Source: an uncultured bacterium
GTDB lineage: Bacteria > Acidobacteriota > HRBIN11 > JAKEFK01
Reading direction: 5' to 3'
Assembly: GCA_963777505.1 (NCBI GenBank)
Contig: CAVZQN010000004.1
Location: 1,575,814-1,639,813 of the forward strand
Length of the DNA: 64,000 bases
This document shows, piece after piece, positions 43,321 through 59,986 of this stretch. How positions within the stretch are numbered: the stretch's first letter is position 1; each line of letters opens with the position of its first letter. A program made the position numbers and the translations under genes. The notes beneath the pieces are model-generated. The model was given only the letters and a program-made list of their open reading frames with translations. It did not search any database and had not been told where the DNA came from.

Positions 43321-43429
43321 CAGATGTTGGGCGTTTCATAATGCTCACTTTTAAGTTGCAGTCCTTCTTGCAATCCGGACGTGAGGAGGCTTGAAACTTG
43401 AAAACCATACACGTACTTTTAGGGTGAGC

Positions 43430-45832
43430 ATGTTTGAGCATTATACAGAACGGGCGATTCGTGTTATTCAGTTTGCGAGGTACGAGGCCACACAGCTGGG
43501 GAGCCGCACGATTGAAACTGAGCATTTGTTGCTTGGTTTAATCCGTGAAGGGAACGGAATTACAAGCCGCATTTTTAACCGCTGCAAAGTTACCTTCGAA
43601 GAGATTCGAAAAGAAATAGAATCCCGCGTAGTACTCAAAGAAAAAATTTCTCCTTCCGTTGAACCTCCACCTAGCCCTGATGTTGATAAGGTTCTTGCTT
43701 TTGCTGCAGAAGAAGCTGAGCATCTCAATCACAAATACATAGGGACAGAACATATCCTTCTTGGCATTTTACGTTTAGAGAGTTGTGTTGCTGCAGAGAT
43801 CCTCCGTCAAAAAGGGATGAAACTGACTGTCATTCGTTCGGAGATTTCGAACATTCTTAACGAAAAGGCCGGTGCGAAAGTAAAAGAATCTCCAACACTT
43901 TACGAATTCTGTCGAGATCTTACCGATGAAGCAGCCCGCCATAATCTGGATCCGTTAATTGGGCGTAATGATGAAATGGGCCGGATTATTCAAGTGCTCT
44001 GCCGCCGTTCGAAAAATAATCCGCTCCTTGTTGGAGAACCTGGAGTTGGTAAGACTGCATTGGTCGAAGGTCTTGCTCAGCGCATTGTGGATGGTGAAGT
44101 CCCTTATCATTTGACCGACAAACGCGTTCTTGCATTAGACATTTCGCTTGTCGTTGCTGGTACAAAATATCGCGGCCAGTTTGAAGAAAGAATGAAAGCC
44201 ATTCTGAAGGAATTGGTCGAATCCCCTGAAATTATTATTTTCATCGATGAAATCCACACACTGGTCGGAGCCGGTTCTGCGGAAGGTTCTTTAGATGCAG
44301 CCAATATTTTGAAGCCCGCACTTTCGCGCCGGGAAATTCAATGTATCGGAGCGTCCACTCCTGCGGAATACAGAAAATATATTGAAAAAGACCGTTCACT
44401 TGAACGGCGTTTCCAACCGATCCGAATTACTCCACCATCAGAAGATGACAGCATCCGTATCCTTGATGGCCTAAAAGAGATTTACGAAAATTTCCACAGT
44501 GTTAAATACACCGAAGATGCAATCAAAGCATCCGTATTTCTTTCTTCACGTTATCTGACTGAACGTTTCCTTCCGGATAAAGCGATTGACTTAATGGATG
44601 AGGCCGGATCGAAAGTGAAACTGAAGACTTCACCTCAACCGAGCGAACTTTCGGATATTAAGAAAAAAATCAAAACGATTGTAGATCGTATGGAAACTGC
44701 AATCTCAAAGAAGGAATTTGAAAAGGCTGCATTTTATCGTGATGAAGAAATGCTTCAGCGTGAAAATCTGATGATGCTGAAAGATAAGTTGAACAGCCAA
44801 ACTCAAAAGAATCTGGTAACGGAAGAAAACATCAGCGAAGTTATTTCTACATGGACAGGCATTCCGTTGAGTGCCATCAATGAAGTCGAATCTCAGAAGC
44901 TTTTGCGAATTGAAGAAGAATTGCGCAAATGGATGGTTGCTCAGGCCCAGGCAATTGAGGCTGTGGCACGTGCAATCCGCCGGTCAAGAATTGGTCTGAA
45001 AAATCCATCTAAACCGATCGGCTCCTTCCTGCTTTTAGGACCTACTGGCGTCGGTAAGACTGAATTAGGCCGCTCGTTGGCCCGACATATGTTCGGAAGT
45101 GAAAAGTCTTTAATCCGCTTTGATATGTCTGAATTTATGGAAAAGCATTCGGTCTCAAAACTAATTGGTTCACCCCCAGGGTATGTCGGATATGAAGATG
45201 GTGGACAACTGACTGAACTTGTTAAACGTACACCGTATTCGATCATACTTTTGGATGAGATCGAAAAAGCTCATCCGAGCATCTTCAATGTGTTGTTGCA
45301 GGTGCTCGAAGACGGTCATTTGACCGATTCTTTCGGAAATAGAATTGACTTTAAGAACACGATCATTATTATGACTTCCAATATTGGAGCCCGATTAATT
45401 GAAAAAAGTGGAAGAATGGGCTTCCGTGCTCCAGATGAGTTAAAGGAGTATGAGGACACGCGCGAGGAAGTCTTGCAAGAAGTGAGGAAAACTTTCAATC
45501 CGGAATTCATCAATCGTTTGGATGAAATTATTGTTTTCCATCCTCTGTCTGATGATGATTTGCTTCAAATCATCCATATGATGATTCAGCAGATTAACAT
45601 CGATCAAAAGGAGGAAAAACCGCGAATTATGCTCTCAGAAGCTGCCATGCGTTGGCTGCTGGATAAATCATGCCGGGATAAACGTTACGGCGCTCGTCCG
45701 CTTCGGCGGGCAATTCAACGTTATGTTGAAGATCCGATCGCTGATCTGTTGATCCGGAATGGGATTGAAAAGAATACGGCAGAAATTCGTGTAGAAATTC
45801 AAGACGAAAAACTCGTCTTTAGCCAGTCCTGA
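43430..45832 (+). CDS. clpC: ClpC-type AAA+ chaperone ATPase (Clp_N repeats, two AAA modules, UVR-like linker)
   Basis: Two Clp R-domain repeats, Walker A GEPGVGKT and GPTGVGKT, UVR-like EFEKAAFYRDEE; start at ATG 43430 (MFEHYTERAI). Confidence 0.85.
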   Translation: MFEHYTERAIRVIQFARYEATQLGSRTIETEHLLLGLIREGNGITSRIFNRCKVTFEEIRKEIESRVVLKEKISPSVEPPPSPDVDKVLAFAAEEAEHLNHKYIGTEHILLGILRLESCVAAEILRQKGMKLTVIRSEISNILNEKAGAKVKESPTLYEFCRDLTDEAARHNLDPLIGRNDEMGRIIQVLCRRSKNNPLLVGEPGVGKTALVEGLAQRIVDGEVPYHLTDKRVLALDISLVVAGTKYRGQFEERMKAILKELVESPEIIIFIDEIHTLVGAGSAEGSLDAANILKPALSRREIQCIGASTPAEYRKYIEKDRSLERRFQPIRITPPSEDDSIRILDGLKEIYENFHSVKYTEDAIKASVFLSSRYLTERFLPDKAIDLMDEAGSKVKLKTSPQPSELSDIKKKIKTIVDRMETAISKKEFEKAAFYRDEEMLQRENLMMLKDKLNSQTQKNLVTEENISEVISTWTGIPLSAINEVESQKLLRIEEELRKWMVAQAQAIEAVARAIRRSRIGLKNPSKPIGSFLLLGPTGVGKTELGRSLARHMFGSEKSLIRFDMSEFMEKHSVSKLIGSPPGYVGYEDGGQLTELVKRTPYSIILLDEIEKAHPSIFNVLLQVLEDGHLTDSFGNRIDFKNTIIIMTSNIGARLIEKSGRMGFRAPDELKEYEDTREEVLQEVRKTFNPEFINRLDEIIVFHPLSDDDLLQIIHMMIQQINIDQKEEKPRIMLSEAAMRWLLDKSCRDKRYGARPLRRAIQRYVEDPIADLLIRNGIEKNTAEIRVEIQDEKLVFSQS

Positions 45833-45870
45833 CGATCCGGCCACAATTCAATATTATTAAAGAAAAGAAT

Positions 45871-48207
45871 ATGAAATTGCTTGTACTACCTTTCATTCTA
45901 GTCCTGGCCTTCGGTTGTTCTGTTTTTGCTCAAGGAAACGAAAACACCATTGTCGAAGTCCGCATCGAAGGAAATCAGAGAATCGCTACTGAGACTTATC
46001 AGTATTACATCACGACACGGGCGGGAAATGATTATGATGCCGCCGGTGTTCGCGAAGATTTTAAGCGCCTCTGGCAAACTGGATTTTTGAATGATTTAAA
46101 GATCGAAACGGAAACAACCCCCGAGGGTGTTATTGTAATTTTCAAAGTTGAAGAGCGGCCGCTGGTCAAGGTAATTGAATATTCAGGCAATAAGAAAGTC
46201 TCCAAGGATGATATTGAAACCAAGTTGAAGGATGACAATATCGGATTGAAAATCGATCAGCCTTACGATCCATATTCCGCGAAAAAAGTCTCGAATGCAA
46301 TTGATCAGCTAATGATCGAAAAGGGTCTCCGTTTTGGGAATGTCAAAATTCTTACCGAATCGATAGGTACATCAGGCACCAAAGTGACTTTTCAAGTCGA
46401 TGAAGGGCCGAAAGTCCGAATCGGTGAAATCGTATTTGAAGGGAACAAAGTCTTTTCCGATGGAAAGTTAAAAAAGCGCATGAAAGATACGAAAGAGCGT
46501 GGAATGCTTTCCTGGATCATGCGCAAAGATGATTTCGAAAAAGAAAAATTCGATAAGGATATGGAACGCGTTTCCGATTTATATCTGGACAATGGTTATA
46601 TCAATGCAAGGATTGATGAGCCTCAAATAGAACTCATAGAAGGTAAAGAGCGGATGCGCGTCACGATTCCTGTTGATGAAGGGGATCAGTATCGGACTGG
46701 CGATATTCATTTTTCGAAGAATACTGTCATTGCTGAGAAGGTTCTCCAGAAGAACATGGAAATGAAAAAAGGAGAAGTATTCAATCGAAGTCAGCTTCGC
46801 GCCGGGCTTGAAGAGAATCAAAAGGCTTATGGTGATCAAGGATATATTTATGCATCACTGAACCCTGCACTGGACCCTGATAATGCGAACAAAATTATTA
46901 ATCTCAATATTGAAGTGCAGGAAAACGGACAATTCTTTGTTAACCGGATTGAATTTACAGGCAATAATTACACGCGTGACAAAGTCATCCGTCGCGAGCT
47001 TCTCATTCAGGAAGGAGAACTTCTCCGAGTCAGCCGTTTTCGCGAGAGTTTGGACCGCATTTATCGTCTCGGATTTTTCGATGATATTAAGCCGAATATT
47101 GTGCCTGTTGAAGGCGTCGATAACAGAGCCGATGTATCAATCGATGTAAAAGAAAACAAGAGAAATGAAATCCGGTTGGGCGGCGGTTACAGTGAATTTG
47201 AAGGATTTTTCGGCAATGTCGTTTTCTCAACCAAAAACCTTTTTGGTACAGGAAAGATCTTCACTCTCAATCTTCAAGGTGGGTCACGATCTGAAAACTA
47301 TGGAATCGAAATTCTTGAACCATATTTTCTTGATCGCCGTATTTCCCTTGGTTTTGGTTTGTTCAAATATAGATACGACTATTTCAATTTCCTTCGCGAC
47401 ACTTTAGGCGGTTCGATTTCTTTTGGATTCCATATTTATGAAGAATTTAAAGGCGTTGTAACCTATGCATATCAGGTCGTTGATATCGACAATCCAACCG
47501 ATAACTCCGGAACTCCAATTGATGATGATATTTTCCCCGGACTTGAGCAGCTTCAAAGTGACCGCACAGAAAGCCGGGTTACTCCTCAGCTCATCCGCAG
47601 CACGATCAACAATCCAAACGAACCTACACGCGGGACGCGGTTAGTTCTTGCAAATGAATTTGTAGGCGGTTTTCTCGGTGGCGAAGTAAGTTACATTAAG
47701 CCAGCCATAACCTGGACGCACTTTATTAGAGGATTTATTAAGAAACACCATTTTGCATATAACGTAGAATTCGGTTATGGCAGTGGATTCGGGAGTCTTG
47801 AGCTGCCTTTTTATGAACGATATTTTCTTGGGGGCGAACGGAGTATTCGTGGTTACGAAATCCGCATCGTTGCCCCTATCGCAGTTGATGCTTCAGGCCG
47901 TCAATTTATTGCAGGGGGAAACAAGTTTTTTGTGACCAACGTTGAGTATGTTGTACCATTGGCAGGGCCATTGAAAGTTGCCGTATTTCTGGATTACGGA
48001 AATGCCTTCAGGCCAGGAGATGGAGTCGATTTCACAGATATGCGCGGCAGTACGGGAATTGAAATCAGATTCCTGGCGCCATTTCTCAGCGCTCCATTCC
48101 GCTTTATCTGGGCCTATAACTTTAACCGTGGCGAGCTGATGACCTTGCCTCCAGACTTCCAGCCAGAACGAACCACCTTCCGATTCTCTGTTGGGACGAC
48201 ATTCTAA
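45871..48207 (+). CDS. bamA: Outer-membrane protein assembly factor BamA
   Basis: Signal peptide, POTRA repeats, C-terminal beta-barrel ending ...RFSVGTTF. Confidence 0.85.
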   Translation: MKLLVLPFILVLAFGCSVFAQGNENTIVEVRIEGNQRIATETYQYYITTRAGNDYDAAGVREDFKRLWQTGFLNDLKIETETTPEGVIVIFKVEERPLVKVIEYSGNKKVSKDDIETKLKDDNIGLKIDQPYDPYSAKKVSNAIDQLMIEKGLRFGNVKILTESIGTSGTKVTFQVDEGPKVRIGEIVFEGNKVFSDGKLKKRMKDTKERGMLSWIMRKDDFEKEKFDKDMERVSDLYLDNGYINARIDEPQIELIEGKERMRVTIPVDEGDQYRTGDIHFSKNTVIAEKVLQKNMEMKKGEVFNRSQLRAGLEENQKAYGDQGYIYASLNPALDPDNANKIINLNIEVQENGQFFVNRIEFTGNNYTRDKVIRRELLIQEGELLRVSRFRESLDRIYRLGFFDDIKPNIVPVEGVDNRADVSIDVKENKRNEIRLGGGYSEFEGFFGNVVFSTKNLFGTGKIFTLNLQGGSRSENYGIEILEPYFLDRRISLGFGLFKYRYDYFNFLRDTLGGSISFGFHIYEEFKGVVTYAYQVVDIDNPTDNSGTPIDDDIFPGLEQLQSDRTESRVTPQLIRSTINNPNEPTRGTRLVLANEFVGGFLGGEVSYIKPAITWTHFIRGFIKKHHFAYNVEFGYGSGFGSLELPFYERYFLGGERSIRGYEIRIVAPIAVDASGRQFIAGGNKFFVTNVEYVVPLAGPLKVAVFLDYGNAFRPGDGVDFTDMRGSTGIEIRFLAPFLSAPFRFIWAYNFNRGELMTLPPDFQPERTTFRFSVGTTF

Positions 48208-48270
48208 TTGCTGAAAATATCGGGAGAGCGGGCTGCATGTTTGTTGAGATAAATGATTCTATGGCGTGCG

Positions 48271-48306
48271 CGGAGGCGCGCCCTCCGGACGTAGTCCGGT
48301 TTTAGA
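48271..48306 (+). terminator. bamA terminator: two adjacent hairpins (CGGAGG-CGCGCC-CTCCG and CCGGAC-gta-GTCCGG) followed by TTTTAG
   Basis: Perfect inverted repeats read directly, 64 nt after the bamA stop. A further 12-bp IR TTTAGATTGCAG/CTGCAATCTAAA follows at 48300-48355 upstream of skp. Confidence 0.6.
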
Positions 48307-48381
48307 TTGCAGATTTCAGTTTGAAAAAGTACAATCTAAAAGCTGCAATCTAAAAAATTCAAAGTTGGAGAAAGTAGTTTT

Positions 48382-48912
48382 ATGAAATTGTTAGTTGTGT
48401 CATTTCTGTTGCTTTTCGCTTTGCCCGTGATGTCTCAAAGTGCGGGACAAATCGCTGTTGTTGACGGCGAGAAAGTATTAAGAGATTCAGAACCTGGTAA
48501 AAAGTTGTTTGCTGAAGTCAAAACACTGCGCGACAAAAAGCAGCAGGAAATCGAACAGCGTCAGACCAGCATTCAAGCTATGCAAGAAAAACTTAACAAA
48601 GAAAAAGATATCCTTAGCCCTGATGCTCAAGAAAAGCGTCGTGCTGAAATTCAAAAAGCTTTAACGGATGCAAAACGTTTTCGCGAAGATTCGGAAGCTG
48701 AAATTCAAGGCAGACTCGATTCTGCAATGGGTGGAATGCAAGACAAATTACTTCCGATGATCCAAAAATTGGGCCAGGAAAAAGGATATTCATTAATTGT
48801 TGGTAAACAGTTTACTATCTGGCATGATGCTAAATACGACATTACAGAGGAAGTAATCAAACGTTTTAATGAATCGCAAGGTGCAGCAGCTCCTGCTGAA
48901 AAGAAACAGTAA
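48382..48912 (+). CDS. skp: Periplasmic chaperone Skp (OmpH)
   Basis: Signal peptide plus long coiled-coil lysine/glutamine-rich body; classic position after bamA. Confidence 0.8.
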   Translation: MKLLVVSFLLLFALPVMSQSAGQIAVVDGEKVLRDSEPGKKLFAEVKTLRDKKQQEIEQRQTSIQAMQEKLNKEKDILSPDAQEKRRAEIQKALTDAKRFREDSEAEIQGRLDSAMGGMQDKLLPMIQKLGQEKGYSLIVGKQFTIWHDAKYDITEEVIKRFNESQGAAAPAEKKQ

Positions 48913-48923
48913 ACACGAGACGA

Positions 48924-49376
48924 ATGACGGCCTTCGACATCAATTCAATCTTGAGGGCGTTACCCCACCGTTATCCGTTCCTTTTAGTAGATAGGATTCT
49001 CGAATACGAAAAAGAAAAACGGATTGTCGGAATCAAGAATGTAACCATCAATGAGCCTTTTTTTCAGGGCCATTTTCCCGGCAGACCGATTATGCCGGGA
49101 GTCCTGATTATTGAAGCAATGGCTCAGATGGGAGGCGTCTTGTTACTCCAAGATCATGAATTGAAAGAAAAAGGCCTGGTTTATCTTGTCGGAATTGATA
49201 ATGCTAAGTTTCGTAAAACAGTGATACCTGGCGACCAGTTACGGATTGTGGTAAATGTACTGAAGTATAAATACACGATTTGTAAAATGAGGGGAGAGGC
49301 ATTTGTGGATGAAAACCTGGTAGCTGAGGCAGAATTCTTGACATCCCTCGTGACCCAGGAACCAGAGCATGCCTGA
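48924..49376 (+). CDS. fabZ: 3-hydroxyacyl-ACP dehydratase
   Basis: HFPGRPIMPGVLIIEAMAQ hot-dog active-site motif. Confidence 0.9.
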   Translation: MTAFDINSILRALPHRYPFLLVDRILEYEKEKRIVGIKNVTINEPFFQGHFPGRPIMPGVLIIEAMAQMGGVLLLQDHELKEKGLVYLVGIDNAKFRKTVIPGDQLRIVVNVLKYKYTICKMRGEAFVDENLVAEAEFLTSLVTQEPEHA

Positions 49377-50145
49377 AATTCATCCTACCGCAATTGTTCA
49401 TTCCGATGCACAAATCGCAGCGGAAGTTACAATCGGACCCTATAGTGTGATAGGTTCTGGCGTCCGAATCGGAAGTGGAACCAGAATCATGTCGCATGTA
49501 GTCATTGAAGGACCGACTACCATTGGAAGCAATTGCACATTCTTTCCCTATGGTTCAATTGGCCAAATTCCTCAGGATTTAAAATTTCGCGGAGAACACA
49601 GCGAGCTGATCATAGGCGATCAGAATATCTTTCGCGAATTCGTCACATTTCATCGTGGAACTTCAGGTGGCGGCGCAAAAACGGTTGTTGGAAACAACAA
49701 TCTCTTTATGGCTTATGCACACGTTGCTCACGATTGTCATATAGGAAATTCAATTATTATGGCGAACGCAGCTACGCTGGCAGGTCATGTACGAGTTGAG
49801 GACGATTCGGTCATTGGCGCATTTTCAGGGATTCATCAACATTGCCGTATTGGGAAATATGGCTTTGTTGGCGGTTATTCTGTGATTACAAAGGATGTAT
49901 TGCCTTATTCAAAGACCGTAGGAAATCGCGCGCATTGTTATGGCATTAATTCTGTTGGTCTGCGTAGGCAGGGATTCGATTCATTAAGAATCAATACAAT
50001 CCGAAAGGCATTCAGGCTTCTTCTGCAATCACATTTAAATACGTCACAAGCTGTTGAAGCAATTTCAAAAGAAGTATCTGAATCGGAAGAGATTTCATAC
50101 CTTCTGCAATTTATTAAAAATTCCAAACGCGGCATCATAAAGTAA
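49369..50145 (+). CDS. lpxA: Acyl-ACP--UDP-N-acetylglucosamine O-acyltransferase
   Basis: Left-handed beta-helix hexapeptide repeats and C-terminal helical domain; 8-nt overlap with fabZ. Confidence 0.85.
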   Translation: MPEIHPTAIVHSDAQIAAEVTIGPYSVIGSGVRIGSGTRIMSHVVIEGPTTIGSNCTFFPYGSIGQIPQDLKFRGEHSELIIGDQNIFREFVTFHRGTSGGGAKTVVGNNNLFMAYAHVAHDCHIGNSIIMANAATLAGHVRVEDDSVIGAFSGIHQHCRIGKYGFVGGYSVITKDVLPYSKTVGNRAHCYGINSVGLRRQGFDSLRINTIRKAFRLLLQSHLNTSQAVEAISKEVSESEEISYLLQFIKNSKRGIIK

Positions 50146-52353: not shown

Positions 52354-53239
52354 TATGAATGAGACTGAACCACAAGAAAGCTTACAAAAAGCAGAGCCGA
52401 AGTCGTGGCGTTTTACGATTCTTCATGCTTTTGGACTCTGTGTATTGTTTGCTGTTATTCAAGCCGCCATTTTCCTGGCTATTCGACAATCGACTGGATT
52501 GAAATTAGAAGAGCTAAGATGGTTTCACCTCGCGGTTATTAACGGAATACCAGGCGGAATTGTACTCGCAGTTGGAGCTTATCTGAATGGCTTTTCGCTT
52601 CATGACATGCTCATGGATCGGCTTCCAGATGCGGGCGGAATCCTTTCGACTGTTGTCGCTGTACTCGGCATCATGATCCTTTCTTCGGAACTGAACAATA
52701 TACTGATGAAATACTTACCGTTCACAATGGACGATCAAGTTCAGTTGATTGAGAGGCTGCTAAATGAGGATTTGATCGGTGTGATCATTACTGTTGGAGT
52801 CGTAGCGCCAATCGTTGAAGAATTGTTATTCCGCGGCGTGATTCTTGACGGCTTAAGGTTGTACTATCGAATGAGTACTGCGGTTTTGGCTTCTTCCATC
52901 CTGTTTGGTCTCGTGCATTTGAATCCAGTCGTATCAATCGGAACTTTCCTACTCGCTCTCTTCCTTGCGTGGCTGCGCATCAGTACTGGCTCGCTGATGT
53001 TATGTGTGATTAGCCACTCGGTTTTCAACATAACTCCATTCATTCTGAAAAAAATGCTTCATAGTGAAGTTCAGGGTTTGACGTCGTTACCAACAACCGC
53101 AGGAGTTCAGTTTCAACCGTTTTGGTTGGATGCGCTTGGAGTATTATTGCTGCTCGCTGGAATTGCTGGCTTGAAATTCAGTAACGAGGAAGAACAAAAG
53201 CCTCAAGAAATTCGAGAACTGGGATCAGAACAAGGATAG
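52354..53239 (+). CDS. CPBP/CAAX-family intramembrane metalloprotease
   Basis: VAPIVEELLFRGV and FGLVHL motifs; start moved to ATG 52354 because the track ORF 5' end overlaps the aminotransferase gene. Confidence 0.7.
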
Positions 53240-54337
53240 TTGCCCCGATCTCAGAAAATGTTCTGTAGTCATTTCATCCTCATCGTCTTCATCATCATCA
53301 TTATTCAGGCCATATTTCTTGCATGAGGCAGAGAAGAGAGCTTTGATAGTTTTGGCGAGCTCTCCTTCGCCTGTCATTCGAGAATGAAATCGTGGATCAC
53401 TTAAATTTCCGCCGCGAACTTCTCGGATTCGATTCAGAATTTTCTCTGCGCTATCCGGTAATTCCCTTCGTACCCATTCTTCAAATAATTCTTTCACTGC
53501 ATATGGCAATCGCATGATGATGTAAGCGGCACTCTTAGCGCCGTGATCGGCAGCTTGTTTCAAAATCTCTGGAATCTCGCTATCTGTGAGTCCAGGAATT
53601 ACTGGCGCAATATTTACTCCAACTGGGATACCGGCATCACTTAACGCTTTAACTGCCTTCAACCGATTTTGAGGGGAAGCGGTTCTTGGCTCCATTTTTG
53701 AAATGAGCTTCTGATTCAAGCTGGTTATCGAAAGTGTAACGTGAACCAATTTGAAACGGGCGAGTTCTTGCAGCACATCAATGTCGCGGGTCACCATAGA
53801 ATTCTTCGTGATGACGCCAACGGGATTACGGAAACGTAAGAACTGCTGAAGGCACCCTCTGGTGAGCTTTAGCTTCTTTTCAACTGGCTGATAACAATCA
53901 GTATTCCCGCACAGTGCAATGACCTGCGGCTCAAATTTTGGATCCGATAGAGCCTCTGCCAGCAATTCTGGCGCATTCATTTTCACCATGATTTTGCTTT
54001 CAAAATCCAGGCCTGCCGAAAATCCAAGATATTCGTGACTCGGCCGTGCATAACAATAAATACAGCCATGTTCGCATCCGCGATAAGGGTTTACACTGAA
54101 TGTGAAAGGAACATCCGGGCTATCGTTTTTTGCAAGAATTGAACGTGAAGAGTCCTTAAAATAGATGGTAGGGATTTTTCCGGGTGCCGTACCCTCCATC
54201 TCGTCGGAGAGGTCATCTATCTTCAGTGTTTCAAAACGATTACCCGGATTAAATGCAGCACCCCGGCCTTGAATTCGTTCAGGCATAGTATGATTATTGT
54301 ATGAATTTTTGGAAGAGTGTTGCAAATGAACATTCAA
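53225..54337 (-). CDS. Radical SAM protein (SplB/PA0069-like DNA-repair-photolyase family)
   Basis: CEHGCIYCYA = CxxxCxxC; acidic DDDEDDEDE C-terminal tail. Confidence 0.7.
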   Translation of the reverse strand: MNVHLQHSSKNSYNNHTMPERIQGRGAAFNPGNRFETLKIDDLSDEMEGTAPGKIPTIYFKDSSRSILAKNDSPDVPFTFSVNPYRGCEHGCIYCYARPSHEYLGFSAGLDFESKIMVKMNAPELLAEALSDPKFEPQVIALCGNTDCYQPVEKKLKLTRGCLQQFLRFRNPVGVITKNSMVTRDIDVLQELARFKLVHVTLSITSLNQKLISKMEPRTASPQNRLKAVKALSDAGIPVGVNIAPVIPGLTDSEIPEILKQAADHGAKSAAYIIMRLPYAVKELFEEWVRRELPDSAEKILNRIREVRGGNLSDPRFHSRMTGEGELAKTIKALFSASCKKYGLNNDDDEDDEDEMTTEHFLRSGQLSLF

Positions 54338-54368
54338 AAAACAAAAAATGTGCCCAACAAGAGGGAGA

Positions 54369-54953
54369 ATGATGAGACGAGATGAATATGAGGAGCTGCC
54401 TTATTTTGATTCAGATGGCAACGTCTTCGTTGAAGAATTGCGCCGTCATGACGCTTACATAAAGCGTGGTGGTAAGCTAACGGCTCCACAAATGATTAAG
54501 TATGAGAATCGTGTCATGATGCTCGTTGAGCGTTTGATGCTAATTCATGAAGCTGTAAAACCAAATAACCAGGATTGTGAAGACTTTCTTCGATCGATAG
54601 AGAATTATCATCGCCGTGGTTTATTGCCCGTGCAAGTTTATCAGCGGTTTAAGGAGAAAAATGAAGCTCAACCTGGCCATAAATCAGAAAGGGATCGTGA
54701 TCGTCTTCGAGTGATTACAGGTGGAGCGGAAGCTGATGAACGAAGTCTCTCCGATCTACCTGTGGAAACCTTGCTTGAGATGAATCAGCAGGGCGCGATT
54801 ACGAATCCAGTTTTATTTCATGAATTGAACAAGCGCGAGAAGACTGGAACAAAGCTTCCCAAAATGGGAGGTGTTCTTTGGGGGAAATATCGTACGTGGG
54901 TGGCCGAAAGAAATCGTGCTCGACGTCACGCACCACGAAACCATGAACGATAA
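54369..54953 (+). CDS. Hypothetical basic protein, co-oriented with and 11 nt overlapping the GreA-domain gene
   Basis: ATG doublet at 54369 after AGGGAG RBS; Arg/Lys-rich C-terminus; no family recognised. Confidence 0.4.
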   Translation: MMRRDEYEELPYFDSDGNVFVEELRRHDAYIKRGGKLTAPQMIKYENRVMMLVERLMLIHEAVKPNNQDCEDFLRSIENYHRRGLLPVQVYQRFKEKNEAQPGHKSERDRDRLRVITGGAEADERSLSDLPVETLLEMNQQGAITNPVLFHELNKREKTGTKLPKMGGVLWGKYRTWVAERNRARRHAPRNHER

Positions 54954-57036
54954 TCACCTTCAAGACCTCCTTCAAAACAATCGTTTTGATGAACTAGAAG
55001 AATACTGGCTGGAACTTATGGAGTCCGGCCAATTTGATCTGCAAGATTTGCTTTCGTGCGCAAAGATTCTAGGACGAAATCGAGAAAAGAAGCGCGCTGG
55101 TTTATTGATGACGTTGCTGGATGAGCATCTTCGCGAACATGGCCGCTGGGCCGATCGCCTACGCGTTCTAAAGGAAATTACTCGTCATACACTTGAGCTA
55201 AAAGAACTCGATAACATGAAGGATGCGCTTCGAGAAACTCTTGCGAAAGTTTATCCCGATAGCCCTTCATTCAACGCCGTTTTGAGATCTTTCGCATTCG
55301 ATGAAATTCTGAATGCTGAAGAGCTTGCAAAGAGTGTCGAAAAATCCGAGGAAGCATTCCCTTATGATGTCGGTCGGGTTTTTTACCAGCCGGGCTATGG
55401 AGTGGGGCGAGTTTCAGAAGTGAATCTCAAGCTCAGAGTTGCTCGAATTAATTTCGAAAAGAAGGAAGATGTTACCGTTCAATTTGGCGATCCAGAAGTT
55501 CAGCTCTTGCCGGAAGGTCATCTACTTCGCGACAAAGTAATGAATCTTGAGCAGGTTCGACAGGATGCGGAAGCAAATCCTGCAGAAATGCTAGGGAGAT
55601 TGTTGCAGACGTTTGATCGTGCGATGACAGCTGGGGAAATCAAGGATTGTTTCCATGGAATTGTCGATACCAATCAATGGTCGAGATGGTGGACAGCCGC
55701 AAAAAAGAATCCGCAGGTGGTAACAACGGGAAAGGGCGCTCAAGCCGTTTATGCCTGGAGTGGGTCGGCTTCAGAAGCTGAAGAAAGTGTTCGGAAGGAA
55801 TTTGACTCTGCGAAAGTTAAAGATCGAATTAATCTTGCGCGTACGCATGCAGCACGAAGCCAGGAACTTTCTGACCATTTTGCAGCAATCTTGCTTCAAG
55901 AATCTGTGCGGGCATATGAAGGGAAGAAATGGGATGAAGCAATTGAGCTTCTGGATTTATTTCAAAAGTGGCCCGGCAAATCGTCTCCAGCTGCTGGTTA
56001 TACTTTCGAACAAATTATTAGAGAAGCTCGTCCGGCAGAACTGCTCACCAGTGTAGAGAATCAGCCGCAGAAAACAAAAATCCTGATGGCTTATCGTGAA
56101 TTGTTACCAGATAACTGGGTACAGATTTTTACTGATCACTTTTATCGGGAAGAGAATCCGCGCCTTCTTACTTTGATGTATCAGCAATTACAAACCGATG
56201 CGCCGGAATCATCGGCCACTGCGATATTGAATCGCATAGTCGGTCATCCATCCTTGAATCCAGCTGCATTTGCCTGGTTCTGTGAAGGCGCAAGTGGAGA
56301 AAATGTTGATCCTGCTTTTGCGCAGCTTCTAGATGGAAAGTTCATGCTATCTGCGTTTGAATCAATTGATGGAACTGAGTTTTCAAAACAGCGGAACCGG
56401 GTTAAGAAGGCTGTAGAAAGCGGATTGCTGATGAATTTGCTTGCCCGTTCCATCAATCCAGATCTTGCGCAAAAAGCGGTCGATATGTTGGATCACACGA
56501 TTCACCTGGAAGATTATCGAAGAGATCGTTGGAAAAATGTGATTCGTGCACGGATTCCAGAAACGAAGAAAAAGGAAGATTGGATTTTCAGCACACGTGA
56601 AGCCTTTGAACGGAAACGCGTGGAGCTTGAACAGCTGATTAAAGTTGAGCTGCCTGTCAATCGAAAAGCAATTGGCGAAGCTGCGGCGCATGGTGATTTG
56701 AAAGAGAATCACGAATATAAGGCTGCAAGGGAACGTCAGGATTATTTGATTAACAGAGTCAGTCAACTTCAGGGTGAATTGAGTCACGTTCGCGTTCTTG
56801 AGCCGGGACAGGTTGATTGCAGCGAAGTGCGGCCTGGTACGCGGGTCGAATTAGTTCAACCCGGTGAAAAACGGATGCTTGTGACATTGCTCGGTCCCTG
56901 GGATTCCAATCCTCAGGAAGGTGTGTATTCCTATCAAGCAAGAATCGGCACGATACTTCTTGGCAAACTTCCAGGTGAAAAAGTGGAATGGAATGACGAG
57001 CACTGGACCGTAGAAAAAATCGAACCCTGGAGCTGA
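54943..57036 (+). CDS. Large (~698 aa) helical protein with C-terminal GreA/GreB-like module
   Basis: C-terminus: GDLKENHEYKAARERQDYLINRVSQLQGEL (Gre coiled-coil signature) then FKBP-like GTRVELVQPGEKRMLVTLLGPWDSNPQEGVYSYQARIGTILLGKLPGEKVEW; start set at internal ATG (MNDNHLQDLL). Confidence 0.55.
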   Translation: MNDNHLQDLLQNNRFDELEEYWLELMESGQFDLQDLLSCAKILGRNREKKRAGLLMTLLDEHLREHGRWADRLRVLKEITRHTLELKELDNMKDALRETLAKVYPDSPSFNAVLRSFAFDEILNAEELAKSVEKSEEAFPYDVGRVFYQPGYGVGRVSEVNLKLRVARINFEKKEDVTVQFGDPEVQLLPEGHLLRDKVMNLEQVRQDAEANPAEMLGRLLQTFDRAMTAGEIKDCFHGIVDTNQWSRWWTAAKKNPQVVTTGKGAQAVYAWSGSASEAEESVRKEFDSAKVKDRINLARTHAARSQELSDHFAAILLQESVRAYEGKKWDEAIELLDLFQKWPGKSSPAAGYTFEQIIREARPAELLTSVENQPQKTKILMAYRELLPDNWVQIFTDHFYREENPRLLTLMYQQLQTDAPESSATAILNRIVGHPSLNPAAFAWFCEGASGENVDPAFAQLLDGKFMLSAFESIDGTEFSKQRNRVKKAVESGLLMNLLARSINPDLAQKAVDMLDHTIHLEDYRRDRWKNVIRARIPETKKKEDWIFSTREAFERKRVELEQLIKVELPVNRKAIGEAAAHGDLKENHEYKAARERQDYLINRVSQLQGELSHVRVLEPGQVDCSEVRPGTRVELVQPGEKRMLVTLLGPWDSNPQEGVYSYQARIGTILLGKLPGEKVEWNDEHWTVEKIEPWS

Positions 57037-57039
57037 GCT

Positions 57040-57100
57040 TATTAAGGGATCGCAGACGTCCCGTCTGCATCGGGATCGCGGACATCTTGTCCGCATACCA
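57040..57100. repeat. REP-like element (GCAGACGTCCCGTCTGC + GCGGACATCTTGTCCGC)
   Basis: Read directly between convergent genes. Confidence 0.65.
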
Positions 57101-57820: not shown

Positions 57821-59986
57821 ATGCATATTCGCTCAATTTTTATTGTCTTCAGCGTATTCCTCGCTGGTTTTGCTTTCGCCGAAAACTTAAATGAACAGCT
57901 TCTCGAAGCTGCACGGAAAGGTGATGCAACGCTCGTCAAGTCGTTGCTTGACCGTGGTGCCGATGTCAATGCAAAAGCCCGGTATAACGTCACACCCCTT
58001 GCTTTTGCCTGCGATAAAGGGCATCTCGAAGTCGTTAAATTGTTGCTTGAACGCGGCGCAGATGTGAATGCAGAAGATACTTTTTACAAATCAACTCCTT
58101 TAACGTGGGCGGCGGAAAATGGACACATTGAAATCGCAAAACTTCTAATCCAAAAAGGGGCGAAAACTGAAGGAGCCCTAACATTCATGATTTATACCGG
58201 AAAAGAAGATATGGTCCGGATGCTTCTCGAAAACGCAAAGTTTACGCCTGAAAATATGACGGAGGCTCTTGAAGTCGCAATCTCGCAAGAGCAAAAAGGT
58301 ATTGTAAAAATTCTTGAAGACGCAGGAGCAGTACGAAAAAAGGCGGACCTTCAGGTACCACCAGAAGTTCTAAAAATGTACGCAGGCAAGTTCAAAAATA
58401 ATGAAGGAAATGAGGTGACGTTTGTTCCTGATGAAAATTCAATAAAGGGGAGTGGAGCAGGTGAGCCTTTTGTGCTTATTCCCAAAGACGATAAGTCATT
58501 TGAAATGGGTGGTGCTCCTGACTACAAATTTGTTTTTGAAGTCGCAGATGGCAAGTCAAACCGGTTAACTGTTACACGTCCGGATGGCTCTACTTCCATT
58601 TATGACAGAGTTGATGAAAAGAGTGCAGCTGCAGAAGAACCAAAAAGCACTCAGACTGCCAACACCGCCGCGCTTACAGAAAAGCGTGAGGTTACAAAGC
58701 CATTAAACTGGCCTTCATTTCGTGGAACTGAAGCTTCAGGTGTCGCAGATGGACAATATCCTCCTGCTGTATGGGATGTTGAGAAAGGAAATAACATTGC
58801 ATGGAAAACAGCAGTTCCTGGTTTAGCGAATTCATCTCCTATTGTTTGGGGCGACCGTGTATTCATAACGACTGCTATCACCAGCGATCCAGAATCAAAA
58901 TTGCGGCATGGTCTTTATGGCGATGTTAAACCCTCTGAAGATTTAACAAAACATACATGGCGTATCTATAGCATTGATAAAAAATCAGGAAAAATTTTAT
59001 GGGACAAGATTGCTTTTGAAGGCTCTCCAAACGTAAAACGCCATCCAAAATCTACCCAATCGAATTCAACACCTGTAACCGACGGTACGCATGTAGTTGC
59101 TTTGTTTGGTTATGGAGGACTGCAGTGTTATGACTTCAAAGGAAATCTATTGTGGAAGAACGATCTTGGAGTTCTAGATTCCGGCTGGTTTTATGATCCT
59201 GATTATCAATGGGGCCATGGAAGTTCTCCAGTATTGTTCGGAGATCTGGTTATTGTGCAGGCCGATTTGCAGAAAAATTCCTATATTGCCGCATTCAATC
59301 TTAAAGATGGAAAGTTAGTATGGAAAACTCTTCGTGATGAAATTCCATCATGGGGGAGTCCCACTGTAGTGAAAACAAAGAACGGAAGTCAGATCGTTAC
59401 CAATGGTACGAATTATGTTCGAGGTTACGACGCGAAATCCGGAAAAGAAGTGTGGAAGCTTAAAAATAATTCAGAAATTACAGTTCCAACTCCTTTTGTT
59501 GCTCATGATCTAATTTTTGTTACAAGCGGTTATCCTCCCATGCAACCAATCTTTGCAATTCGCACGAGTGCAACTGGAGATATTTCATTGAAAGAAGGTT
59601 CCGAATCGAATGAATATGTCGCGTGGAGTAAATCACGTGGCGGACCATACATGCCAACTCCCATTGTGTATGGTGATTATTTGTATACTTGTGCAAATAA
59701 TGGTGTTGTGGCTTGCTACAACGCGAAAACAGGCGAACGCATTTATCAAAAACGCCTTGGTGGAAAGGGCAGCGGATATGCATTTACTGCTTCACCTGTT
59801 GCAGCAGATGGAAAGCTATATTTTACGAGTGAAGATGGGGAAATTTATGTTGTTAAAGCAGGGCCTGAATATGAAGTGCTCGCGATCAACAAAATGAATG
59901 AAGTCGCAATGGCAACACCTGCTATCTCCGACGGCATGATCGTCATCCGAACGCTCGAGCATGTGTACGGAATTCAAGCCAAATGA
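57821..59986 (+). CDS. Secreted protein with N-terminal ankyrin repeats and C-terminal PQQ-like beta-propeller
   Basis: Three ankyrin repeats (LLEAARKGDATLVKSLLDRGADVNA...), then PQQ/BamB-like W-motif blades. Confidence 0.65.
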   Translation: MHIRSIFIVFSVFLAGFAFAENLNEQLLEAARKGDATLVKSLLDRGADVNAKARYNVTPLAFACDKGHLEVVKLLLERGADVNAEDTFYKSTPLTWAAENGHIEIAKLLIQKGAKTEGALTFMIYTGKEDMVRMLLENAKFTPENMTEALEVAISQEQKGIVKILEDAGAVRKKADLQVPPEVLKMYAGKFKNNEGNEVTFVPDENSIKGSGAGEPFVLIPKDDKSFEMGGAPDYKFVFEVADGKSNRLTVTRPDGSTSIYDRVDEKSAAAEEPKSTQTANTAALTEKREVTKPLNWPSFRGTEASGVADGQYPPAVWDVEKGNNIAWKTAVPGLANSSPIVWGDRVFITTAITSDPESKLRHGLYGDVKPSEDLTKHTWRIYSIDKKSGKILWDKIAFEGSPNVKRHPKSTQSNSTPVTDGTHVVALFGYGGLQCYDFKGNLLWKNDLGVLDSGWFYDPDYQWGHGSSPVLFGDLVIVQADLQKNSYIAAFNLKDGKLVWKTLRDEIPSWGSPTVVKTKNGSQIVTNGTNYVRGYDAKSGKEVWKLKNNSEITVPTPFVAHDLIFVTSGYPPMQPIFAIRTSATGDISLKEGSESNEYVAWSKSRGGPYMPTPIVYGDYLYTCANNGVVACYNAKTGERIYQKRLGGKGSGYAFTASPVAADGKLYFTSEDGEIYVVKAGPEYEVLAINKMNEVAMATPAISDGMIVIRTLEHVYGIQAK

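Follow-up and report, generated by a model that had tools for sequence, protein, structure and literature searches.

A long-form GreA carrying a predicted Tudor barrel and winged helix, and its small upstream basic neighbour, in an Acidobacteriota-labelled bacterium

In a 64,000-nucleotide stretch of DNA from an uncultured bacterium (contig CAVZQN010000004.1, positions 1,575,814 to 1,639,813; hereafter the window), two plus-strand open reading frames (ORFs) of the ORF list span positions 54348-57036 and encode a small basic protein of 193 residues followed by an acidic protein (isoelectric point [pI] 5.6) of 697 residues that ends in a Gre module. The larger product belongs to a known, functionally unexplored family of long GreA proteins, of which it represents an Acidobacteriota branch, and its sequence makes family membership together with Gre function highly probable. 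The explanation that best accounts for the locus overall, and one that we moderately favor, is a long GreA in which an N-terminal platform would dock on RNA polymerase (RNAP) and carry the Gre module, with a clade-specific partner encoded alongside. Coordinates given below are those of the window and refer to the plus strand unless stated otherwise.

The coding sequence of the long GreA runs from 54943 to 57036 (697 codons plus a stop codon at 57034-57036), with the Gre module confined to residues 548-697. The protein is thus not a stand-alone Gre factor of ~160 residues, in contrast to canonical GreA and GreB (1grj, 2p4v); here Gre is the C-terminal fifth of the chain. The N-terminal antiparallel coiled coil of the module (residues 548-620, with helices at 552-581 and 590-613; 56584..56802) matched Pfam GreA_GreB_N (PF03449) over residues 550-618 at E=2.4e-19 (69.7 bits against a cut-off of 24.5), and the C-terminal globular domain (residues 621-697; 56803..57033) matched GreA_GreB (PF01272) over residues 627-694 at E=2.3e-11, above its curated cut-off, while the NCBIfam greA model TIGR01462 matched at E=2.5e-32. 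An earlier note on this DNA, made by reading the sequence, had proposed that a complete Gre module ends a mostly helical protein of about 700 residues, and the significance of all three profile matches bears this out. In a BLASTP comparison with E. coli GreA (30% identity, E=9e-15), HGDLKENHEY of the 697-residue protein aligned with HGDLKENAEY. The acidic tip of the coiled coil (D585-L-K-E588, codons 56695..56706), equivalent to D41 and E44 of E. coli GreA, retains both acidic residues, a point that the note had suggested checking, and is conserved across 127 relatives: G584, D585, and N589 are each present in 127 of 127, and position 588 is glutamate in 124 and aspartate in 3. Per-region identity was highest in the Gre part. 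In structure, the C-terminal 150 residues make up a whole Gre factor, intact and selectively maintained, whose acidic tip is invariant.

The N-terminal region and the long-GreA family

The N-terminal part of the protein had been described in the earlier note as lacking any recognizable domain, a view that does not survive profile searches or structure prediction. Two curated models of long GreA proteins match the protein as a whole: NF011309 (PRK14720, a 906-residue "GreA") aligned residues 11-695 with profile positions 181-902 at E=3e-54, and NF004969 (PRK06330, "transcript cleavage factor/unknown domain fusion protein") matched at E=8e-47. The product is also 100% identical to a database protein (P0001, from a 1.9-Mb NCBI/ENA contig) that, like all 28 of its word-indexed homologues (~695 residues), carries PF27167 plus both Gre domains in precomputed Pfam annotation; PF27167 is the Pfam family HTH_GRAD, located N terminal to both Gre domains. 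A full-length AlphaFold2 model, built on 20 homologues, was continuous, with a mean predicted local distance difference test score (pLDDT) of 88.9, and resolved five parts upstream of the Gre module. These are an alpha-helical, TPR-like arm (residues 1-141; 54943..55365), a Tudor/SH3-like beta-barrel bearing the motif GRVFYQPGYGVGRV (residues 142-192; 55366..55518), a winged helix-turn-helix corresponding to the HTH_GRAD region (residues 193-275; 55519..55767), an alpha-helical repeat scaffold of ~260 residues (276-537; 55768..56553), and a linker (residues 538-547; 56554..56583) that model confidence marks as flexible and that holds the sole segment with pLDDT below 50 (residues 543-545). Taken more narrowly, the small barrel spans residues 146-190 and the winged helix residues 194-272. 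Invariant N-terminal columns concentrate in the barrel (G144, G151, G153, and G155) and in the winged helix (P213, L221, W246, and W250, the two tryptophans lying in a WSRWW motif). The scaffold is the least conserved region, with an identity of 0.56 in close relatives that falls to 0.19 in distant ones, and the helical regions gave generic TPR-like matches only.

For the barrel and winged helix, a separate model of residues 138-278 (pLDDT 90.4, predicted template modeling score [pTM] 0.80) was searched against the PDB. The barrel is predicted to adopt a five-stranded, SH3-like Tudor fold, and UvrD/PcrA/CarD-type Tudor domains were its top structural matches; in an independent ranking by Foldseek, the Tudor domain of UvrD1 came first and Mycobacterium tuberculosis CarD bound to RNAP beta came fifth. 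A sequence profile of 36 diverse long-GreA family barrels (profile A4) retrieved solely UvrD-type Tudor domains (UvrD1, UvrD) from the PDB at E<0.01 (7.8e-4, 1.6e-3, and 3.5e-3). When the 36 barrels were searched individually against Pfam, matches were obtained to PcrA_UvrD_tudor (PF21196) for 6 of them (best E=2.9e-5), to CarD_TRCF_RID (PF02559) for 4, and to the RapA Tudor domain for 2, whereas the commonest match was to DUF3553 (11 of 36, best E=3.9e-5), which suggests that DUF3553 may also be a UvrD/CarD-type Tudor domain. Sequence searches of the PDB and Pfam with the two-domain core, comprising barrel and winged helix (profile A2), returned noise only. Structure together with family-level sequence leads us to regard the barrel as a probable homologue of the bacterial Tudor domains that associate with RNAP in UvrD, PcrA, CarD, and Mfd. 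Fold and the signature G-x-x-V-x-(H/Y)-x-x-x-G-x-G-x-V are common to the long-GreA barrel and UvrD/PcrA/CarD-type domains; the latter reside in a helicase, a translocase, or CarD, whereas the former sits in a Gre factor, where RNAP binding is putative. UvrD/PcrA Tudor domains contact the RNAP beta lobe/SI1 (PMC8318588; title of 7egs), and CarD contacts the beta protrusion (bioRxiv 10.64898/2026.02.09.704077).

The best structural match of the winged helix, in fold only, was the N-terminal domain of the RNAP delta subunit, a winged helix of HARE-HTH type (2krc, 7f75_L). Profile searches of the PDB and searches of Pfam with 26 diverse members gave no match to delta or HARE-HTH, so that the likeness to delta is treated as a resemblance rather than an established relationship. 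The two proteins also differ in what accompanies the domain: delta bears an acidic disordered tail, and long GreA bears the Gre module instead.

The same layout recurs well beyond this genome. A genome scan with the core profile recovered 26 loci, from Acidobacteriota, Brocadia, Phycisphaerales, other Planctomycetota, Sumerlaeia, Verrucomicrobiota, Spirochaetes, and many Chlamydiota, complete Chlamydia crocodili genomes included. At 25 of these loci, a Gre module lies ~1.3 kb 3' of the core on the same strand; the remaining locus (L007) ends at a contig end before the Gre region. An exhaustive hidden Markov model (HMM) search with the core against 1.84 billion representatives retrieved 1,280 clusters (defined at 50% identity) at E<=1e-3 and 770 at E<=1e-10. 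Among the listed proteins of at least 640 residues, 94 of 96 possess a Gre module, and the shorter ones listed resemble contig-end fragments. The core of Tudor barrel and winged helix is thus coupled to Gre almost obligately, across many phyla, and an architecture that the earlier note had implied to be unusual proves to be shared by ~1,280 clusters, members of which occur in Chlamydiota, Spirochaetota, Planctomycetota, Verrucomicrobiota, Acidobacteriota, and other groups. Three proteins from the search depart from the common layout. One of 1032 residues (P0155) is a long GreA extended at its N terminus by ~345 residues; another of 708 residues (P0111) has the N-terminal parts and no detectable Gre module; and a third of 1549 residues (P0101), without a Gre module, has 16 distinct segments that each match the barrel portion of the core profile, and it is possibly made up of Tudor repeats.

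Two groups of relatives have been recorded previously. The chlamydial long GreA (NF004969; e.g., C. trachomatis CTL0004, 715 residues) is of similar length (~700 residues) and has the same order of parts, namely a helical arm, Tudor barrel, WxxWW winged helix, helical scaffold, and C-terminal Gre; alignment with the chlamydia-like members P0027 and P0028 agrees in domain order and length. The C. crocodili orthologue (717 residues, 1283 bits on NF004969) was recovered with the core profile of the 697-residue protein. The N-terminal regions are, however, just ~21-24% identical, chlamydial members have an additional Pfam family (PF27371), and chlamydial loci are without a small basic gene upstream of long GreA. 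In a 2024 review, C. trachomatis GreA is called "unusually large", with no function given for the extra part, and Table 2 of that review lists no other Gre factor for Chlamydia (PMC10995303). GreA of Borrelia burgdorferi co-purifies with RNAP (PMC7237435). Spirochaetal long GreA (NF011309/PRK14720, ~900 residues, e.g., Borrelia; one spirochaete ORF of 903 residues scored 641 bits on NF011309) has the Tudor barrel, winged helix, and Gre module in common with the protein described here and differs in ~180 extra N-terminal residues, which are not homologous to the 193-residue small protein. The co-purifying Borrelia protein we take to be this long form.

A small upstream basic protein

The gene immediately upstream of long GreA (54372..54953, stop codon TAA at 54951-54953) encodes a protein of 193 residues with a pI of 9.3 and a strongly basic C-terminal tail (pI 11.9 over the last 35 residues). 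ATG 54372, rather than 54369, is its most likely start, since the database protein P0226 (MRRDEY...) and homologues begin there and a Shine-Dalgarno-like GAGGGAG lies 4 nt upstream. The end of the small ORF overlaps the start of long GreA by 11 nt (54943..54953), an arrangement in which translational coupling is plausible. The small protein belongs to a tight orphan family, for which a single-sequence search gave 48 clusters and a profile search 83; its members are all ~190 residues long and share 47% identity or more, and nothing more remote was found down to E=0.01. Their alignment contains 42 invariant columns, which include the basic tail LWGKYRxWVAE. No match to the small protein was found in Pfam, NCBIfam, the PDB, PADLOC, or PHROG. 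An invariant LPYFDxxGN in the small protein is only superficially like the helicase interaction motif discussed below.

The small gene lies directly upstream of long GreA in four of four independent related contigs (L001, L028, L030, and L031). The 11-nt overlap is kept in three of these and replaced by a 6-nt gap in L028, and in L030 the two genes stay adjacent even though the flanking genes differ. Because the small gene directly precedes long GreA in every related contig examined, operon-like coupling of the two genes is plausible. The earlier note's observation of a small basic protein encoded just upstream stands. In contrast, neither tblastn nor HMM searches found the small protein within ±6 kb of 25 long-GreA genes of other lineages, and in two other Acidobacteriota metagenome-assembled genomes the gene upstream of long GreA is divergent. 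Members of the clade that has the small gene are labelled "Acidobacteriota bacterium" in their sources. The small protein is thus restricted to one clade and is a partner that is probably co-translated with long GreA, and any control of Gre by it, as suggested in the note, would be limited to one clade at most, given that the partner is absent beside the 25 other genes. The idea that the small protein is a split-off version of the spirochaetal N terminus was also considered and rejected: it has no match to NF011309, and its own profile (A3) matched nothing in L020 or the other long-GreA loci.

In a related ENA assembly, an 887-residue protein (P0229) consists of the small ORF fused in frame to long GreA. 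The junction (...GGVLWG/NIVRGWPKEIV...) falls exactly at a G5A3 homopolymer corresponding to window positions 54870-54890 (...CTTTGGGGGAAATAT...), and the fusion removes the conserved basic tail; two sister entries, P0227 and P0230, are both frame-shifted and fragmentary. A programmed frameshift joining the two ORFs was considered and rejected: the two genes of L028 are in one frame and are parted by a stop codon and the 6-nt gap, the basic tail that a fusion would lose is conserved in the aligned homologues, and the junction lies in a G5A3 run in a source whose sister proteins are themselves frame-shifted. The P0229 fusion is probably a long-read homopolymer sequencing error.

Possible docking on RNA polymerase

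In the mechanism that we favor, the Gre coiled coil would enter the RNAP secondary channel and stimulate cleavage of backtracked RNA, as canonical GreA does, while the N-terminal region would serve as a platform for docking and touch the RNAP surface at one or two additional sites. The Tudor barrel would contact the beta lobe or protrusion, and the site of the winged helix would be near the beta' jaw/shelf. Instead of exchanging freely, long GreA would then be tethered much as a quasi-subunit is, or be drawn to RNAP in particular states. The 193-residue basic protein would be a co-expressed partner, most likely binding long GreA or nucleic acid. Gre factors reach into the secondary channel with their coiled coil and keep their N terminus at the channel mouth, and an N-terminal extension is therefore sterically compatible with Gre action. 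That a Gre-like coiled coil in the secondary channel can share a chain with further RNAP-contacting domains is shown by HelD, which follows the same principle (PMC7749165). HelD differs in being an NTPase that dismantles complexes, whereas long GreA is without an ATPase and retains a full GreA, catalytic tip included. We infer N-terminal tethering of Gre to RNAP with evenly balanced confidence. A more specific version, with two docking points (the beta lobe/protrusion for the Tudor barrel, the beta' jaw/shelf for the winged helix) and the small protein as a dedicated third component for gating or targeting, is put forward tentatively.

Several observations weigh against this proposal. Scores on the curated models lie far under the equivalog cut-offs (184.5 versus 714 bits for NF011309 and 160.3 versus 697 bits for NF004969), the models being lineage-specific and the 697-residue protein a separate branch. 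The Foldseek E-values are non-significant, the best being 0.024; the barrel of the 697-residue protein is itself too diverged to give a significant Pfam match alone, and the Tudor link holds at the family level, with modest E-values. The pTM of the full-length model is 0.49, which makes its inter-domain geometry unreliable. The PcrA-type helicase interaction motif [VIL]-D-x-x-T-G-E-[VIL]-[VILT] (PMC8318588), considered as a candidate ligand of the Tudor barrel and rejected, occurs in neither long GreA nor the small protein, and a six-frame translation of the window does not contain it either; rpoB lies outside the window. The small protein is similar to nothing known and is missing from most of the long-GreA family. 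Literature searches for GRAD, HARE-HTH with GreA, and Tudor with GreA retrieved no study of the long-GreA N terminus.

In an alternative that we regard as rather unlikely, the target of the Tudor and winged-helix module would not be RNAP but nucleic acid in the form of duplex DNA, an R-loop, or nascent RNA, and Gre would thereby be delivered to polymerases at particular DNA or RNA structures or loci. SH3-fold domains of the CarD, chromo, and Tudor types are reported to bind DNA in certain instances (PMC5906684), and the DNA-binding PHF1/MTF2 structures in the Foldseek list likewise have a Tudor domain followed by a winged helix. However, the N-terminal region is acidic overall (pI 5.6), the nearest relatives of the barrel are specifically the RNAP-binding Tudor domains of UvrD, PcrA, and CarD, and the best match of the winged helix, delta, binds RNAP and not DNA (PMC7749165). 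Less probable again is a regulatory or auto-inhibitory role, as proposed in the earlier note, in which the TPR-like repeats, on binding a ligand or partner (the small basic protein in this clade), would control entry of the coiled coil into the secondary channel. The resemblance of these repeats to those of the peptide-sensing RopB and Rap proteins, the flexible linker before the Gre module, and the tight conservation of the co-encoded small partner are all consistent with such a role; the partner, however, is absent from 25 other long-GreA loci and cannot be general family logic, and the standing of long GreA as the sole listed Gre factor of Chlamydia (PMC10995303, Table 2) suggests a housekeeping rather than a conditional function.

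That the Gre module is non-cleaving, acting instead as a competitor or regulator at the secondary channel (similar to Gfh1, Rnk, or DksA) and held there by the N-terminal region, appears improbable. Catalysis is not provable from sequence alone, yet the GDLxEN tip has both acidic residues invariant among the 127 members, save for the three aspartates at E588, and Chlamydia keeps long GreA as its only Gre (PMC10995303). Finally, an assembly or frameshift artefact fusing an unrelated gene to a normal greA can be dismissed, for although errors do occur at this locus (e.g., the frame-shifted 887-residue fusion), the 697-residue architecture recurs in hundreds of independent genomes and metagenomes, complete Chlamydia genomes among them, and the AlphaFold2 model is confident and continuous.

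If docking through the N-terminal region and a partnership with the small protein are correct, Gre would be a resident quasi-subunit of RNAP in these organisms, which would account for the "unknown domain" of the sole chlamydial Gre and of spirochaetal GreA, and the two genes described here would form a previously undescribed two-protein secondary-channel system in an Acidobacteriota-labelled clade. The 550-750 extra residues of long GreA proteins have hitherto been labelled "unknown domain", and parts of them can now be assigned to a predicted Tudor barrel of RNAP-associated type and a delta-like winged helix, from which multi-point tethering to RNAP may be hypothesized family-wide. What this locus adds is a free-living, Acidobacteriota-labelled branch and a clade-restricted, linked partner gene, rather than a new kind of system.

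Gene boundaries and neighborhood

The long-GreA ORF is open at most from GTG 54871; its start was placed at ATG 54943 (MNDNHLQ...), the position where all homologues begin. Promoter pattern scanning found no intergenic promoter-like site between the small ORF and long GreA. Matches to the terminator pattern, two of which (54854-54872) lie within the small ORF, were no commoner than in shuffled sequence (4 versus a mean of 3.4). Promoters are presumably located in the short divergent region that separates the small ORF from a radical-SAM gene on the minus strand (54290..54371, as delimited by the ORF list and sequence if the radical-SAM start is MPERIQG). The sole sigma-70-like match in this region is on the minus strand (54325-54296), and the pattern scan found no consensus promoter on the plus strand there. 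The start of the radical-SAM ORF (53225-54337, minus strand) is ambiguous: its longest version, from TTG 54337, leaves ~34 nt before the small ORF, while the putative start MPERIQG (~54289) would give a divergent region of 82 nt that contains the sole sigma-70-like match. Past the GreA stop codon, between the convergent GreA and methyltransferase genes, two adjacent GC-rich hairpins of 7 bp (57048..57099) each follow GGGATCGC and together fold at -25.7 kcal/mol (z=-2.94). The pair is without a U-tract and was not scored by the terminator pattern scan; it is a possible bidirectional terminator.

The neighbors of the two genes are of housekeeping type (ClpB-like, BamA, OmpH, FabZ, LpxA-like, an aminotransferase, an Rce1-like protease, a radical-SAM protein, a methyltransferase, and an ankyrin/PQQ-propeller protein), as assigned by synteny with L001. 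No mobile-element, phage, or defence signals were seen in the neighborhood, and no tRNA genes or Rfam families at the gathering threshold were found in the whole 64 kb. A defence or phage origin was considered and rejected, as neither protein has a PADLOC match, the small protein has no PHROG match, and the neighborhood is a housekeeping one; the GreA N terminus gave a chance-level PHROG match only (E=0.058). Upstream, at 43391-50145 on the plus strand, a ClpB-like gene is followed by an outer-membrane/lipid A cluster (BamA-like, OmpH, FabZ, and LpxA-like) syntenic with L001, which points to a diderm organism and a conserved housekeeping neighborhood. Downstream, at 57821-59986 on the plus strand, lies a gene for a 721-residue protein in which a signal-peptide-like N terminus, ankyrin repeats, and a PQQ-type beta-propeller form an unusual combination; the same gene is also the downstream neighbor in L001.

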